64,000 bases of DNA. It comes from Thermodesulfobacteriota bacterium (GTDB lineage Bacteria; Desulfobacterota; Desulfobacteria; Desulfobacterales; SURF-7). Made by a program: the position numbers. The stretch is from positions 1 through 64,000 of the forward strand of contig JBMORA010000025.1 in assembly GCA_049320885.1 (NCBI GenBank). Direction: 5' to 3'. How positions within the stretch are numbered: position 1 is the first letter of the stretch; every line of letters starts with the position of its first letter. Positions 1 through 6,000 of the stretch are shown here, one piece after another.

Positions 1-3000
1 TTCCGCTTCCGCCTTGGCTTTGGCCTCCGCTTCCGCCTTGGCCTTGGCCTCCGCTTCCGCCTTGGCCTTGGCCTCCGCCTCCGCCTTTTCAGCAGCGACC
101 TTTAGATCAGCCGGCGAATATTTCCTGAAAAGAAGCGGATGAAATTTTTCCAGGTCCGCGCTTTCCGACCAGAAGGGCGGGGCGCTGAATCGGCTGGCAT
201 GGCCCGCATCCAGCGGCGGTTCAAAGCGTTGTTTCGGTTCCCAGACATCGAATTTTTTCTGAATCAGGGATTCCCGTGTGGGCGGCTCCGCCGCTGGGAC
301 TTGTTTTTTGCTTGGCGCTTTGGTTTTGGCAGCAGCCTTTGAACCCGTGGCTTCTTTTCCTTCCGTTTTTACCGAATCGTCCTTGGCTTGCGGGGTTTGG
401 CTTTTGCCGCCTTTTTTCGCAGTAGATTTCAATAAGCTTTTCTTGCCCATAACATCCTCTTTTTAGGGTAATTTGACGCTTAGCAAAAGATCAACGCATG
501 GTCCCATGTCCGACACGACAACCGAAATTGGATTTTATATCGGATGCATGGCACTTTGTAAACCTTTTTTTGAACCTGCCGCGGCATGAAAATGAACGGT
601 CCTTCACCATCCGCGGGTTATGCCGACCGGCACCCGTCCGGACAGATACCCGGGCGTGCAAATAGACGGAATCGAATCATTTTTAAGTTGACAAGAAAAG
701 GCGTTGCACTCTATCAATGACAATTCATATGGGACAATTCATATGATCCGATGGATGAAGAATTCGAAACCCGAATTTCGAGTCTGACAAGGCGTTGCCT
801 ATACTGGATATCCCCATGGAGGTGGACTATGGCTTTAAAGAGAAACCTGGAGGCAGGACAATTCGTCATTCTGGCGGAAATGGAGCCCCCGAAAGGAGTG
901 GATGTCACCGCATTTGTCAACAATGCCCTGAAGGTGAAGGGGGCTATTGATGCGTTTCTGGTTCCGGAAATGAGCAACGCGGTGATGCGGATCAGTTCGC
1001 TGGGTGGCGCCATGCTGCTGCAATCCAAGGGGATGGAAACGATTATGCAGGTCTGCTGCCGGGATCGCAACCGGTTGGCGCTCCAGGCGGATTTGCTATC
1101 CGCCGCCGCATGCGGAATCAACAACATCATGGTGGTAACCGGTGAGGAACCGAGTTTCGGGGACCACCACCAGGCCAAGGCGGTTTATGATGTCGAGATG
1201 CTGGAATTGCTCCAGGTGATCCAGGGCCTGCAAGGGGGCAAGGACATGGCCGGGGTTGAACTGGCCGGGGCGCCGAGCTACATGGTGGGGGCGGCGGTCA
1301 ATACCGGCTTGGCGGATAAAGCCCTGGCGGATGAACTTATGGAAATGGAGAAAAAAATCGCTGCCGGCGTACGGTTTCTGATTACACCGCCGATTTTCGA
1401 TCATACCGCACTGGACGGATTGTCCCATTTTCTGGACCGCACGGACGTTAAAATCATCCCCACGGTTTTACTCCTTAAATCCATCGGCATGGCCCGGTAT
1501 GTAGCCCGCAATGTGTCCCATATTCATATTCCGGATGACATCATCAGCCGGATCCAAAAAGCCGGGGACAAGGTCAGGGAATGCGTCCTGATCGCCCAGG
1601 AAACCATCAAGACGATCCAGGCCCGGGGATTCAGCGGAGCCTTGATCTCGACGCTTGGATGGGAGAATAAGCTTCCCGAAATTCTGGGCGGAATGGGGAT
1701 CTGATCTCAAACCGCGGAGCACGAAGGACCGTTCCGACCCTGCCGATTCCGGAAATCTTTCCTTCGTGCTCCTCGCCGCGTGCGCCCCATGCGGGACCTC
1801 AATCCCCCATTTTCGCCATGTAATCGTCATACATGGTTTCCAGGGCCAATTTGTGCTTGGCCTCTTCCTGGCAAAGAATCTTGAACAGCTTTTGCTGTTT
1901 TTCCTCCTTGGCATTGGCCTGCAACTGGTTATAGAGTTCCAGGGCTTTTTCCTCCCGTTTCATGGCGATCATCAGGATCTCACGGTACCCCAGACCTTTT
2001 TTGTATTCCAGGTCAATCACGAAATCGCTGCGCTTGAGATCCGTAATCCATTTGAACTTGTATCCGGTCATTTCAGCACCGCCCAGGTCCTGAAGCATTT
2101 TCTGGTGCCGTCTTTCTTCCTTGGCGAAATCAGAAAACAGTTGTTTGGCGCCGGACATCGTTTCCTCCGCACAGAGCTCCAGGTAAAACGCTTCCGCTTC
2201 CTTCTCCTTTTCCATGGCAAAATCGATGACGGCCTTCAAATTTTCAAAATTCATGAAATTCTCCTTTCGCCCGTTTTCCTTTTCCAGCAGCAGCCGGCTC
2301 GCCGGCCGCTGCTCATCGGTTCTTTATGAATGCAACTTCATTAGCAGAATCCGGGGGATAATTCCATCATTAACTTGCTTTCCCGGCGGAGGGAGGCCCG
2401 CTGTCCAACTGCTTGTGTTGAAAAACAACACAGGGATGTAGAAAAATTCGACGGCAGGGCAATCGTAGCATGAATCCCATGGTAATCAAATGATTAGCTC
2501 CATGCAAGGCCGGCCCGGGGGTCCTGGGGTGCTGAAATCTTCAACATCCGGCACCGGCTGCCATGGGAAATCGCAACCGACCCCGCCGGCCGCGGCATGC
2601 GGCCGGCGGCCTTCCGGCGCCGGTTTCTTGCAGAAGAAATATCTCTGGCATATCCCTTGCTTTTACCTGAGGTCAACAAGAGGCGAGCCAACAGACGGAT
2701 GGACACCATCCCTGGGTTTTATATCCAACACAATCAAATGAAGGAGAAACGGCATGAACGCACACCACAATGAAAAAAGAAGCCGGCTGGGATATGGTTC
2801 CACCTATCAAAAAGGAAGCGAAACGGATCAGGGAGGAATGCAGGGAATCCGTACCGTTCTCGGAGGCCAAATCTGGACGGTTTCGCCGGATCAAAGCGCT
2901 GAAAATCCGAACCCCTGCATCTGGATGCAGGCCGGGGTTGTAAAATTCAAAAACTGCAACAATTTTTACGATTGCACCTCCTGTAAATACGATCTGGGAA

Positions 3001-6000
3001 TGAACATGAAGGTGGCCCAGGGCAAACAGGCCAGCTGGCAGAACGCCATGCGTAAAAAGTCCGCGTTGCAGCGGGTATGCCGGCATAGCTTGACCGGCCG
3101 CATTGCAAACCGTTCCTGCGCTTATGACTACCACTGCGAATCCTGTGATTTCGATCAATACTTCGAGGATGTCTGGACCGTAAAAGCCGGGGCCTATCCG
3201 AATGAAAACCGGCGGATCAAAGGATTTGAACTTCCCGCGGACTACCATTTTCATGGGGGGCATGCCTGGGCCAGGATCGAAAGCGGCGGGTATATCCGCG
3301 TCGGCCTGGATGACTTCGCCTTGAAGCTTTTCGGCAAGGCCGATGCCCTGCAGCTTCCCCTGATGGGCAAGGAACTGAATCAGGGCAAAGCCGGCTGGGG
3401 ACTGAAACGAAAAGGCAATGAAGCCGACGTGCTGTCGCCGGTGGACGGGGTCATCGTGGAAGTCAACGCCAACGTCAGGGAAAATCCGACATTGGCCAAC
3501 CAGGAACCCTACGGCGCGGGCTGGCTCTTCATGATCAAAACCCCGGACATCAAAAAAACGGTGAAGCCGTTGATGAACGAGCAGCAGAGTCTGGCATGGA
3601 TCAATGGGGAAATCGAGACCCTCGAACACATGATCGAGGAAGTGGCCGGACCGCTTGCGGCGGATGGCGGTTTTCTCGGCAGCGACATTATCGGCGCCCT
3701 GCCCTCCCTGGGCTGGCGAAATCTGGCCAGAACGTTTTTGAAATCCTGATCCGATATCATCAACGGGCATCTTCACAAGAGGGAATCCGCATGGAAAAGC
3801 ACCAGCCAACGGGAAATGCCGCCGCAAACCAGCCGGCCTGCATCTGGATGCAGGCCGGCGTGGTCTGCCGAAAATACTGCGATCTGAATTTCGACTGCGC
3901 GGTCTGTACCTTCGACCGCGCCATGAATCGGGCCGCGGAAGAAAATCATAAAACGCGGCAGGCCGGGAAAATCCCCAGGGGGGAAAAAAGCGCCATCGTC
4001 TACTGGAAAGACAAGCTCCGCGCCCGGCCGGCCGGGAAGCGACCCTGCCTGCATCATATGAAAGGACACATCGATTTCCGGACCTGCGCCTTGGATTACC
4101 AATGCGGCAAATGCGAGTTCGATCAGTACTTCAATGATCAGTACAGTGTTCACGCCCTGCTCCGGCCCGTGGAGGTCCTCAATGTGGAAGGGTTCCGGAT
4201 TCCCCAGGGATTTTACCTTCATCGCGGCCACGCCTGGCTGAAAGTCGAGGAAAACTCCGAAGTCCGCCTGGGTCTGGACGATTTCGCCTTGCGGTTGCTG
4301 GGCCCGCTTTCCGACATCGAGGCGCCCCTGATGGGTAAGGAAACGCGGCGGGATCGCGCGGACATCCTTCTCCGCAAGGGGCCCCGCGAAACCCGGATGT
4401 TGTCCCCCGTATCGGGCGTGATCACCGCGGTGAATCCGGCCCTGAGGGACAACGGCAGCCAGGCCAACAAGGATCCCTATTCCGCGGGCTGGATCCTGCG
4501 CGTCCATGCCGACAATCTGCGCCAGGATCTGAAACATCTCATGATCGGCGAGGAAACCGAGGCGTTTCTGTCCCGGGAGGTTGATCGACTGTATCAGGTC
4601 ATCGAGGAAGAAATCGGCCCGCTGGCCGCAGACGGCGGCATGCTGGGGAACGACATCGCCGGCCATCTGCCGGAAAAAAGCTGGAGCCGCCTGACCGGCA
4701 TGTTTCTGCGCCCATAATGGCTAATGTCACAATCTGCAATCCGGCTTGATTTCCGTTCCTGGGATTGATAAGAATATATCATTACGAATATCCCATTCGG
4801 AAAACCGCAACAAATGAAGGAAAATGCCATGAAAATCCGGTTGCTCCCCTGCCTGCTGATTGTTCTTTCCTGTTGCTGTTTCGCCTGCTCTTCGAGTGAC
4901 GATGCTTCCGAACCGGCTGAGCCGTCGTCGGAACTCTCCCGGAACGAAGTCGAGGATGCGGCCCAATACTCCCTTGCCTCCATGAATGAAAACGCCGAAG
5001 AGAGCCAGGATATCCGCAAACTCTACGATGTAGGCGAAAACCTCGGCCTTGACGAGGATTCGTCGGAGACGTCCGCCCGCACCGGCCAGGGATACGCACC
5101 GACGGGAACCACCTCTCTTCCCTGCGGCAGCCTCACCTTTGATCAGGGTGCCTTCACCATGATGTTCGACGGCACCTGCAACAATCTGACCGGTACCATC
5201 GACTATACCTCTTCCGGGGGAATCGGAAACAGAAGCTACGACTTGGAGATTTCGGAGGTGAGCGACGGGGAGTGCACCATAGACGGCAGCACCGAGGTCC
5301 AAATGGCTGCCGCGGCCGACCTGATTTCCTGGACCTTTACCCTGGACCAGATGAGCATCTGCGGCCGCCAGTATGACGGCACCGTCACCCTCACCCTCGA
5401 TCCGGAAACGGGGGAAGTCACCTACGCGCTGGTTTCCCGGAATTATTCCTATGCCGGCTCCATCGGTGTGGAAACGGACATCGATTACAGCGAAACGGAC
5501 GGAATCAGCGGCGAAGCCACGGTCACCATCAACGGCGTCAGCTATGCATGCATTGCTTCCGGCATCAAAATCGACCAAACCTGCGGCGTGCCCGTTTCCG
5601 GCACGCTGACCATCCAGGGACAGGGCGGTGGCACGGCGGTTCTTGATTTCAGCGACACTTCCTGCGAAAACAAAACCGTTTTGTATACCCTGAACGGCGA
5701 GAGCCACACCTTCGATCTCGGTGAAACCGCGGCAATGATCGTTCAGACCCAATAGGGAGATAAACGGAAGAAGACCCGGAAGGGCCATCACGCCGACCAC
5801 ACCGGCCTCCGTGATGATCGGGCTTCCTTTTCGGTCAGGGGGAACCCCGGTAGAAAAATCCATCCTCATCCATCCGGACCATGGCTCCGCTGCGCTGCCA
5901 GATCGGTTTTCCCATCTCCCCGGCAACTCCTTTCGGGGAGCCGCCGGTTTCTCCTCCGACCGCCCGCCAGGGTCCTCTGTAAATCAATTCTCCGGTTTTG

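Follow-up and report, generated by a model that had tools for sequence, protein, structure and literature searches.

Lysine-less GcvH-fold proteins with a double Cys4 domain as candidate archaemetzincin targets in a sigma-54-linked module of Thermodesulfobacteriota

The window analysed here (the first 64,000 nucleotides of contig JBMORA010000025.1 of a Thermodesulfobacteriota bacterium) carries two tandem plus-strand ORFs, both labelled “glycine cleavage protein H”. Their products P0001 (331 aa) and P0002 (308 aa) are paralogues with 40% identity across 298 columns and have a common build: a double Cys4 domain, a GcvH barrel without the lipoyl lysine, and a conserved tail, GPLAA-DGG. With a probability of about 0.55, we regard this pair as the dedicated product of a signalling module not described before, in which metal-binding proteins would be induced via sigma-54, cut by an archaemetzincin (M54) and degraded by ClpXP. 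The wider proposal of a new proteolytic circuit of anaerobes, which would have turned a lipoyl-carrier fold into a protease-gated metalloprotein bearing a novel fold of eight cysteines and, via the M54 cut and ClpXP, would time control of Hdr-type electron-transfer complexes, is tentative and leans towards the doubtful side. The features on which the analysis is based are as follows (enhancer PWM built from 51 relatives):

2416..2432, unstranded: distal enhancer-like palindrome (TGT-x-G-N7-C-x-ACA type), copy 3, PWM score 14.7
2437..2453, unstranded: distal enhancer-like palindrome, copy 2, PWM score 16.2
2530..2546, unstranded: proximal enhancer-like palindrome, PWM score 16.3, 116 bases upstream of the sigma-54 site
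2646..2661, plus strand: sigma-54 -24/-12 promoter, 10 of 11 consensus positions
2741..2746, plus strand: ribosome-binding site of gene 1, AAGGAG, 7 bases before the ATG at 2754
2754..3749, plus strand: gene 1 (P0001, 331 aa), with a conserved N-terminal arm, double Cys4 domain, lysine-less GcvH barrel and tail
2916..3146, plus strand: gene 1 double Cys4 domain (C55-C77, C109-C131), eight invariant cysteines
3225..3623, plus strand: gene 1 GcvH-fold domain (residues 158-290), from the fold match to 1dxm_A and alignment to the genome's GcvH
3648..3671, plus strand: gene 1 tail loop G299-G306 (GPLAA-DGG) with the predicted M54 site A303/D304, from conservation, complex model and co-variation
3791..4717, plus strand: gene 2 (P0002, 308 aa), P0001-like architecture without the N-terminal arm
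3839..4114, plus strand: gene 2 double Cys4 domain (C17-C39, C86-C108), from sequence
4616..4639, plus strand: gene 2 tail loop G276-G283 with the predicted M54 site A280/D281, by homology to gene 1

The survey's finding of a tandem pair with two N-terminal four-cysteine modules was borne out, both modules being present in each ORF (2754-3749 and 3791-4717). Two further features had been overlooked: the sigma-54 promoter with its enhancer, and a conserved tail which in our model fits into the active site of M54. RNA-library contigs, which cannot show transcription, match the window without difference at 2701-3015, 3293-3439 and 4200-4400 (5-12% of words were present in four RNA runs), and scans of the window for sigma-70 promoters and terminators gave results near chance.

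The barrel of P0001 has the H-protein fold (1dxm_A: VIA Z 18.9, rmsd 1.6, 131 residues aligned), and Pfam PF01597 (GCV_H) recognises the pair above its cut-off with 76 and 67 bits. The survey had placed both proteins below the GcvH and GcvH_rel cut-offs, which does not apply to Pfam but is correct for all four NCBIfam GcvH-type models: TIGR00527 and NF002270 (73-77 and 59-65 bits versus 116-117), NF045810 (GcvH_rel_desulf; 33 bits versus 150) and TIGR03077 (chlamydial not_gcvH; 35-38 bits versus 144). The hairpin aligns gap-free to the true GcvH of this genome, with which the pair shares about 28% identity, and where GcvH reads E-S-V-K, P0001 has K-R-K-G and P0002 has R-K-G-P; the lipoyl-lysine column is thus occupied by Gly221 (3414-3416) and Pro198 (4382-4384). 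The loss of ESVK described earlier is thus real, but the proposed RREG variant is absent from both window proteins. Among 196 double-Cys4 proteins, the column holds lysine in eight and the E-[ST]-x-K motif occurs in none. The true gcvH lies on another contig, C68, inside its own gcvT-H-P-lip operon (gcvT and gcvP read from translations); neither gcvT nor gcvP was found among the window neighbours of the pair or the recurring annotated neighbour clusters. These data support the earlier opinion that the pair represents a metal-binding regulator or carrier rather than an H-protein; judged from the residues present, the window proteins would be unable to carry lipoate. P0001 had 1778 matches, and well over 1000 of these relatives probably bear a wrong annotation, being called glycine cleavage H-protein wherever they have a name.

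Each window protein contains two C-x12-C-x5-C-x2-C modules, a spacing kept exactly in 350 of the 355 modules counted among relatives, and all eight cysteines are invariant in a 102-row alignment. The CxWM signature given for both modules fits the first, but the second reads C-x-H. Folded alone, the cysteine domain of gene 1 gives a predicted structure with pLDDT 89.8, for which none of 48,161 chains reached Z 2 or more and Foldseek returned no match; its sequence had a single match in the PDB (E 3.8) and none in Pfam, which does not exclude a known Cys4 zinc-finger/Fe-S family, just as the lack of a fold match does not prove a new fold. In the ESM Atlas, the domain found only unnamed clusters (0.80 or less) and the whole protein found GcvH-named ones. 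A search for stand-alone copies among shorter proteins yielded 14 matches, mostly on short contigs, hence no free-standing form is clearly recognisable. The eight cysteines may hold two metal centres, either Zn or Fe/Fe-S.

Upstream of gene 1, a -24/-12 site is combined with palindromes at a conserved distance, the arrangement by which a sigma-54 regulon is recognised. Sites with nine or more consensus positions precede 70 of the 75 scored loci, window included (1.5 expected), and a sigma-54 site was also found at 17 of 25 distant Cys-module genes (0.5 expected). A proximal palindrome of 8/10 or better occurs within the 60-base scanned stretch in 51 of 68 relatives (5.6% in shuffles), in 45 of these 51 at -113 to -119, and among the 880 sigma-54-like sites of the genome the promoter of the pair ranks first for the enhancer. 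An IHF-like site is enriched among the relatives (39/68 versus 11.6 expected) and was not found in this window. We infer that the pair is switched on by its own kinase and sigma-54 activator, linkage being the basis for pairing this activator with the enhancer.

This linkage is seen in 45 of the 58 loci with 4.5 kb of room, where a trio of kinase, sigma-54 activator and M54 genes adjoins the pair. The association reported previously is valid for the relatives but does not extend to the window itself, in which the pair has no hdr, two-component or M54 gene as a neighbour on either side; in this genome the trio is located on a different contig, C16. Its kinase is a PAS histidine kinase, whose match to an N-terminal Rossmann-like domain was below the cut-off (E 0.005-0.2), and its M54 gene overlaps the activator gene at C16 21923-21926 and is translationally coupled to it. 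Among 40 more distant loci chosen by score, the activator cluster was found in 33, the kinase in 30 and M54 in 25. M54 is present in 78 of 85 genomes having a tail-bearing GcvH-like protein versus 37 of 216 others; thus, M54 occurs without the family in 37 genomes, and the family without M54 in seven. Full-length matches (best E below 1e-60) occur in 45 and Cys-module matches in 68 of 301 phylum genomes, in line with the 11 of 101 counted before.

The tie to Hdr and MetF is present at the loci but proved secondary and indirect: in 34 of 47 loci hdrA is located on the far side of the trio, metF was found in 13 of 80, and the metF of the window is a divergent paralogue (829-1704) with 33% identity to the hdr-linked MetF query. 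A ferritin-like gene is located upstream in 24 of 80 loci, and HdrA/MvhD/MetV/MetF and HdrCB genes occur as neighbours; no sigma factor is seen among the recurring annotated neighbours. We rejected a scheme in which the activator drives hdrA in the Desulfobacterales layout, as a sigma-54 site precedes hdrA in only one of 44 cases (4.1 expected) and C16 bears none of the 17 enhancer matches that score best across the genome. Single-gene family members head hdrC-hdrB-hdrA rows, membrane-anchored members adjoin genes for Fe-S proteins, membrane proteins and cytochrome c, and in four genomes the barrel-plus-tail is fused to HdrA/MvhD-type domains. Many members have no Cys module, yet retain the tail and the M54 neighbour.

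The M54 protein of C16 exceeds the PF07998 cut-off and presents all His, Glu, Cys and Met residues of HExxHxxGxxHCx4CxMx17CxxC. The Gly of HExxHxxGxxH, described as strictly conserved (PMC3427221), is Asn here and is replaced in 56 of 77 M54s; all 77 retain the catalytic Glu, and the three His show no variation across the 65 aligned. In a complex model, residues 150-331 of P0001 and the genome's M54 scored 0.80 (best of three controls, 0.00). Of solved complexes, 116 of 157 attain this mark, compared with 2 of 215 mismatched pairs, these counts being only roughly valid with the alignments used. At least 98% of contacts recur between runs, and partner pLDDT is at least 88. The modelled tail runs antiparallel to an edge segment of M54, and P0001 300-310 contacts M54 87-99, 131, His134, Glu135, His138, His144 and 154-161; the P1/P1' register is taken from this contact list rather than from coordinates, and Lys164 is absent from it. 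On this model, GPLAA-DGG is probably the natural target of the archaemetzincin. According to PMC3427221, solved archaemetzincins are inactive on many substrates and the groove of AfAmzA is read as favouring basic and hydrophobic ones.

The identity of the tail residue co-varies with the predicted pocket. After six mixed loci were set aside, M54 has Glu/Thr131 together with Lys/Arg164 in 98 of 98 Asp-tail loci, and Val/Ile131 in 22 of 22 and a non-basic 164 in 21 of 22 Thr-tail loci. These positions correspond to Glu114 and Lys146 of AfAmzA, which according to section 7 of PMC3427221 determine S1' pocket depth. Among 188 M54 columns, the best separators of tail type are 59, 131, 161 and 164, the first three of which belong to the modelled interface. 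Leu131 is found in five M54s, all from genomes whose tails are mostly Ser/Ala; L133, L222 and L224, Thr-linked M54s of a single family, retain Lys164, and one Asp-linked M54 (L217) has Ser131. In quick trees (75 and 64 rows, part of the near relatives), the Thr-type M54s form one clade (one change, SH-aLRT 95), so the Thr-tail match represents one event; the Leu131 clade neighbours it on a weak branch (82). The co-variation of Asp304 with S1' is therefore seen in only one or two clades.

Ala-Ala precedes the predicted site in 164 of 196 double-Cys4 proteins; among distant members, it does so in 2 of 81 without a Cys module and in 0 of 24 with one module. The tmRNA tag of this genome ends in LAA and clpX is present; a cut before Asp304 would expose the same ending, so removal by ClpXP would be a likely next event. 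According to bioRxiv 10.1101/2024.05.08.593097, proteins ending in LAA/xAA tend to be degraded. Against this reading, the Ala-Ala may be a mere subsite preference or reflect common descent.

We suggest the following sequence of events. The PAS histidine kinase and sigma-54 activator would turn on the pair through the enhancer and the -24/-12 promoter, for which the sequence evidence is strong, the choice of regulator being presumptive. The GcvH barrel, which lacks its lipoate site, would act as a scaffold, and two metal centres would be bound by the eight cysteines. The tail loop very likely enters the active-site cleft of the kinase-operon archaemetzincin with Asp304 in the S1' pocket, as model and co-variation suggest; M54 would then, somewhat probably, cut Ala303/Asp304 and remove 28 residues, and the new ...LAA end might, more speculatively, serve as a ClpXP degron, the cut committing the protein to destruction. 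Such a module would determine how long a metal-binding factor, accessory or regulatory, persists in the cell; this factor would most likely serve Hdr-type and related redox complexes.

The complex model and the S1' co-variation are equally compatible with a substrate-like inhibitor, i.e., a tail that docks in the cleft uncut. The pair would then act as inhibitor or scaffold of M54, and their complex would exert feedback on the kinase or the activator. Translational coupling of M54 to the activator, the replaced motif Gly and the precedent of CarG, an inactive archaemetzincin (PMC3427221), point this way; nevertheless, CarG in that account has Gln for the catalytic Glu, which is intact here along with the three His, and the conserved Ala-Ala with a fixed 28-residue remainder is easier to explain by a cut. 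We find uncut docking unlikely. C-terminal processing of hydrogenase large subunits offers a comparison for maturation, in which M54 would trim the tail after metal loading and a stable product would join an Hdr-type or membrane redox complex. The HdrA/MvhD fusions ending in barrel-plus-tail and the membrane-anchored members beside redox genes, mostly without Ala-Ala, agree with this idea. In the double-Cys4 class, which includes the window pair, the products would mostly end in LAA/xAA (degradation-prone according to the preprint cited above), and maturation may apply solely to the Cys-less classes; we find it quite unlikely.

It is improbable that the pair, in line with the survey's carrier option, carries metal or Fe-S for the assembly of HdrA/MetF while M54 is a bystander: the invariant cysteines, the HdrA-like gene beyond the trio and the ferritin-like gene upstream would suit such a role, but the Cys-less members keeping tail and M54 do not, and the complex model and co-variation would be left unexplained. 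A lipoate carrier similar to GcvH or LbpA and modified on a shifted lysine is most improbable. The fold would permit it, Lys occupies position 220 of P0001 in 68% of 83 type-1 rows, and LbpA, which cooperates with an Hdr-like system, is homologous to GcvH (PMC10332631); however, type-2 rows mostly have Gly at that column, E-[ST]-x-K is missing throughout, and no lipoate ligase/synthase cluster was recognised among 25 annotated representatives of recurring neighbours.

Archaemetzincins are known from archaea, bacteria and vertebrates. What they act on in nature was described as unknown in 2012 (PMC3427221, section 7); our literature search found no later paper naming one, and none on the family of the pair by title or abstract start (most subscription journals being outside its scope). 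The locus gives a named candidate substrate with a predicted bond and a small cysteine domain without structural match. If the wider proposal, in which M54 cuts the tail, is true, archaemetzincins would gain their first natural substrate and their first specificity rule (S1' Glu/Lys reads P1' Asp, Val/Leu reads Thr), and HdrA, acetyl-CoA synthetase and membrane redox subunits would bear the tail as a processing tag that can be moved between proteins. Since HdrA fusions also have the tail, and it is likewise met next to membrane redox complexes, it may represent an unrecognised control of energy metabolism in sulfate reducers and syntrophs.

Among known systems, GcvH (PF01597, TIGR00527, NF002270; PDB 1dxm, 1onl) has the barrel fold in common with the pair, which differs in lacking the lipoyl lysine, in its double Cys4 domain and 40-residue tail, and in its location outside a gcv operon; NF045810 and TIGR03077 match the barrel weakly and are much shorter models. 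LbpA of the sulfur-oxidising sHdr system resembles the family here as a GcvH homologue with Hdr-type genes nearby, but it is lipoylated on a lysine, lost in the window pair, by a dedicated ligase encoded nearby, and the available part of its description mentions neither a Cys domain nor a protease (PMC10332631). The archaemetzincins AfAmzA (3zvs) and MkAmzA (2x7m) share HExxH, the third His, the Cys4 site, the Met turn and S1' Glu114/Lys146 with the C16 M54, which differs by the Gly-to-Asn replacement and by being encoded in a two-component operon. CarG of Myxococcus xanthus is likewise a bacterial archaemetzincin tied to transcription control, although it serves in a transcription regulator and misses the catalytic Glu that the M54s here keep (PMC3427221). 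The proposed logic has parallels in that of RseA, whose ClpXP degron is unmasked by two-step proteolysis and whose cut form ends in VAA (PMC8138137), and of CalpL-CalpT-CalpS, in which cut CalpT ends in LAA (bioRxiv 10.1101/2024.05.08.593097). In both cases, one site-specific cut exposes an Ala-Ala C-terminus, as at the predicted site here; RseA and CalpT are anti-sigma factors holding an ECF sigma factor, whereas our proposal concerns a GcvH-fold putative metalloprotein and a metzincin protease.

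Two tandem genes on the forward strand encode the proteins P0001 and P0002, which are 40% identical. In each, a pair of C-x12-C-x5-C-x2-C modules is followed by a GcvH-like domain and then a tail some 40 residues long; P0001 additionally has a conserved N-terminal arm.

Features of the gene pair and its surroundings (position, strand, description)
1-450, minus: gene truncated by the contig end; Ala/Lys/Glu repeats, weak TolA-like match
829-1704, plus: MetF/MTHFR paralogue (PF02219), divergent; 33% identity to the hdr-linked MetF query
1799-2254, minus: ferritin/rubrerythrin-like gene, transcribed away from the pair, with which it has a common upstream region
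2416, 2437 and 2530 (starts): copies of the upstream palindrome
2646-2661: sigma-54 -24/-12 site
2754-3749, plus: gene 1 (P0001, 331 aa)
3791-4717, plus: gene 2 (P0002, 308 aa), 41 bases beyond gene 1
4814-5755, minus: 313-aa protein with a lipoprotein-like signal; neither Pfam nor NCBIfam match
5835-7523, minus: fusion of PilZ and an AMP-binding (acyl-CoA ligase-like) domain, the latter ending before the usual C-terminal part
7605-11207, minus: PutA-type proline dehydrogenase/aldehyde dehydrogenase, ordinary
11332-14061, minus: pyruvate phosphate dikinase, ordinary

Both proteins exceed the Pfam GCV_H cut-off and fall far below those of NCBIfam gcvH, not_gcvH and GcvH_rel_desulf. In the AlphaFold model of P0001 (mean pLDDT 79), residues 158-290 match H-proteins (Z 18.9, rmsd 1.6). 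When aligned to the true GcvH of this genome (contig C68), the lipoyl-Lys column, gap-free near the hairpin, is occupied by Gly221 in P0001 and Pro198 in P0002; among 196 double-Cys4 relatives, eight have Lys in this column and none has the E-[ST]-x-K motif. Folded alone, the Cys region of P0001 reaches pLDDT 89.8, and comparison with the PDB found neither a sequence nor a fold match, which by itself does not prove a new fold.

The protein search gave 1778 hits in total; among the 120 matches listed, every entry with a name bears that of glycine cleavage H or lipoate-binding protein. The genome search confirmed 105 loci and returned 80 of them, the named ones belonging to Desulfobacterales and Desulfohalobiaceae, and at 79 of 81 loci (the window counted in) both genes stand in tandem. 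Cultured carriers include Desulfosarcina variabilis (locus L060) and D. alkanivorans (locus L047). Within the phylum, a full-length match was detected in 45 of 301 genomes, a Cys-module match in 68, and a tail-bearing GcvH-like protein in 85 (best E <1e-30, a threshold of our own choosing). The barrel-plus-tail unit is modular: it may be preceded by one or two Cys modules, a Cys module of another type, a membrane helix, a receiver domain, acetyl-CoA synthetase, or HdrA/MvhD-type domains. Fusions to HdrA/MvhD/molybdopterin-binding, acetyl-CoA synthetase, receiver and Fe-S domains occur at loci L138-L141 and L154 and in the relatives P0277, P0258, P0280 and P0223. Membrane-anchored tail-bearing members at loci L145-L156 and L193-L211, some with a second, different Cys module beginning C-P-F, come in groups of two to four which surround an Fe-S dicluster gene, a membrane protein gene and cytochrome c genes, together with the same kinase/activator/M54 set.

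At 45 of the 58 loci where 4.5 kb of flanking sequence was available, the pair converges on three genes, encoding a PAS histidine kinase, an activator of sigma-54 type and an archaemetzincin (M54). Beyond the trio lies a divergent HdrA-like gene (34 of 47 trio-bearing loci; its cluster contains a few other flavoproteins), and metF, mvhD and metV were found at 13, 11 and 8 of 80 loci, respectively. For the present genome, contig C16 rather than the window carries both the trio and hdrA-mvhD-metV-metF. Among 40 distant loci, chosen by score, the activator cluster occurs at 33, the kinase cluster at 30 and M54 at 25; here some single-gene family members lead hdrC-hdrB-hdrA rows, and Fe-S, membrane-protein and cytochrome c genes stand beside the membrane-anchored members. 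Of the 85 genomes that have the family, 78 also have M54, versus 37 of the 216 others; related genomes are not independent in this comparison. The C16 kinase begins, ahead of its PAS domain, with a Rossmann-like domain (GFO_IDH_MocA, below cut-off; L086:13026-13400), which could serve for nucleotide cofactor sensing. The ferritin/rubrerythrin-like family recurs at 24 of 80 loci of relatives; this gene could have the enhancer in common with the pair or play a role in metal handling. The genome yields at least six MetF-like hits. A homologue of the gene truncated by the contig end stands ahead of a metF paralogue at locus L006.

The sigma-54 site was found at 70 of 75 scored loci versus 1.5 expected (six of the 81 loci were unscorable) and at 17 of 25 distant Cys-module genes versus 0.5 expected; for hdrA, such a site was present at just one of 44 loci. 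Of 68 relatives, 51 have the palindrome TGT-W-G-N7-C-W-ACA upstream (5.6% in shuffles), placed at -113 to -119 in 45 cases. With a matrix derived from the relatives, the promoter of the pair ranks first among 880 sigma-54-like sites genome-wide. The linked activator carries a GAFTDA loop, GAFTGA being the standard loop of sigma-54 activators, and from its linkage to the pair we infer that it reads the pair's enhancer. The rank-2 site, C33:57695 on another contig (locus L170), has two variant palindromes of the TGTAA-N7 type and lies amid two-component genes, upstream of a TauE/SafE gene; it is probably the target of a different activator.

A complex model of P0001 residues 150-331 with the C16 M54 scored 0.80, while the best of three controls scored 0.00. 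Among solved complexes, 116 of 157 attained this mark, as did 2 of 215 mismatched pairs; for our own alignments these figures are approximate. At least 98% of the contacts agree between runs, and the partner pLDDT is at least 88. The model supports, but does not prove, binding of the tail by M54, which we consider about 80% probable. Tail residues 300-310 are modelled in contact with M54 residues 87-99, 131 and 154-161, the zinc ligands His134, His138 and His144, and the catalytic Glu135. The pairs (302 with 96-97, 303 with 93-97, 304 with 93-96, 307-309 with 89-91) run in opposite order, so that the modelled strand is antiparallel. We take Ala303 to be P1 and Asp304 to be P1', following metzincin subsite geometry. 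M54 Leu90, Tyr92 and Tyr94 align with Met78, Phe80 and Phe82 of the solved archaemetzincin AfAmzA, which are bulge-edge residues according to PMC3427221, where a parallel peptide is described as “contrary to substrates”.

With Asp304 as P1', covariation would be expected with the residues of the S1' pocket, the depth of which in AfAmzA is fixed by Glu114 and Lys146 (PMC3427221, section 7). These correspond to Glu131 and Lys164 in the C16 M54. The 126 M54-bearing loci comprise 98 with Asp and 22 with Thr tails at the 304 column; six mixed or missing cases were set aside. M54 has Glu/Thr131 and Lys/Arg164 at all 98 Asp-tail loci, whereas at Thr-tail loci it has Val/Ile131 (22 of 22) and a non-basic residue 164 (21 of 22). 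Among 188 M54 columns, the classes are best separated by 59, 131, 161 and 164, three of them within the modelled interface, and the same columns are best without near relatives (45 versus 22 loci). However, the Thr-type M54s form a single clade, so the match of tail and pocket counts as one event, and active-site columns are also the likeliest to become fixed within clades. Where the tails of a genome are mostly Ser/Ala, five M54s have Leu131 in common (for four of these the pairing is by genome and not by locus); they form their own clade (SH-aLRT 90), adjoining the Thr clade through a weak branch. The exceptions are three Thr-linked M54s of one family retaining Lys164 and one Asp-linked M54 with Ser131. 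Archaeal archaemetzincins (alignments of PDB 3zvs and 2x7m) retain the Glu/Lys pair of the Asp-type M54s, a feature that predicts a preference for Asp at P1' in the archaeal enzymes as well.

We suppose that the kinase and activator would switch on the pair, the Cys domains of which would take up metal, and that M54 would recognise the tail and then cut it. Cleavage is probable, if less so than binding. The catalytic Glu is retained in all 77 M54s, and the motif Gly is substituted in 56. Casein is degraded by one archaeal archaemetzincin (PMC4681839); others had no activity on tested substrates, the AfAmzA groove being taken to suit basic, hydrophobic ones (PMC3427221). A cut between Ala303 and Asp304, or its equivalent, would remove 28 residues from P0001 or P0002 and leave an LAA end, with which the tmRNA tag of this genome also finishes; clpX is present. 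Among double-Cys4 proteins, of both Asp and Thr types, Ala-Ala stands before the predicted site in 130 of the 151 near and 34 of the 45 distant ones; of the distant members without Cys modules 2 of 81 have it, and of those with one module 0 of 24. Cut RseA has a VAA end and is a ClpX substrate (PMC8138137), and cut CalpT has an LAA end and is degraded afterwards (bioRxiv 10.1101/2024.05.08.593097). In the double-Cys4 class, the cut protein may be passed on to ClpXP, a step that we propose tentatively; the Ala-Ala pattern could instead come from subsite preference or descent.

As a rival reading, the pair would act as an uncut inhibitor or scaffold of M54, which we regard as unlikely. Somewhat less likely still, tail removal would be a maturation giving a stable subunit. 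A plain metal carrier we consider improbable, and the least credible is a lipoate carrier. For the intact proteins, the fusions and operons point to a possible role towards Hdr-type and membrane redox complexes, which is the weakest part of the proposal.

The literature search, with subscription journals mostly outside its coverage, found no publications on this protein family. By the tests that define these families, the pair is neither GcvH nor GcvH_rel_desulf nor, lacking the lipoylated Lys, LbpA (PMC10332631). The proposed working is similar to the processing of RseA and CalpT, yet the system of the pair holds none of their parts.
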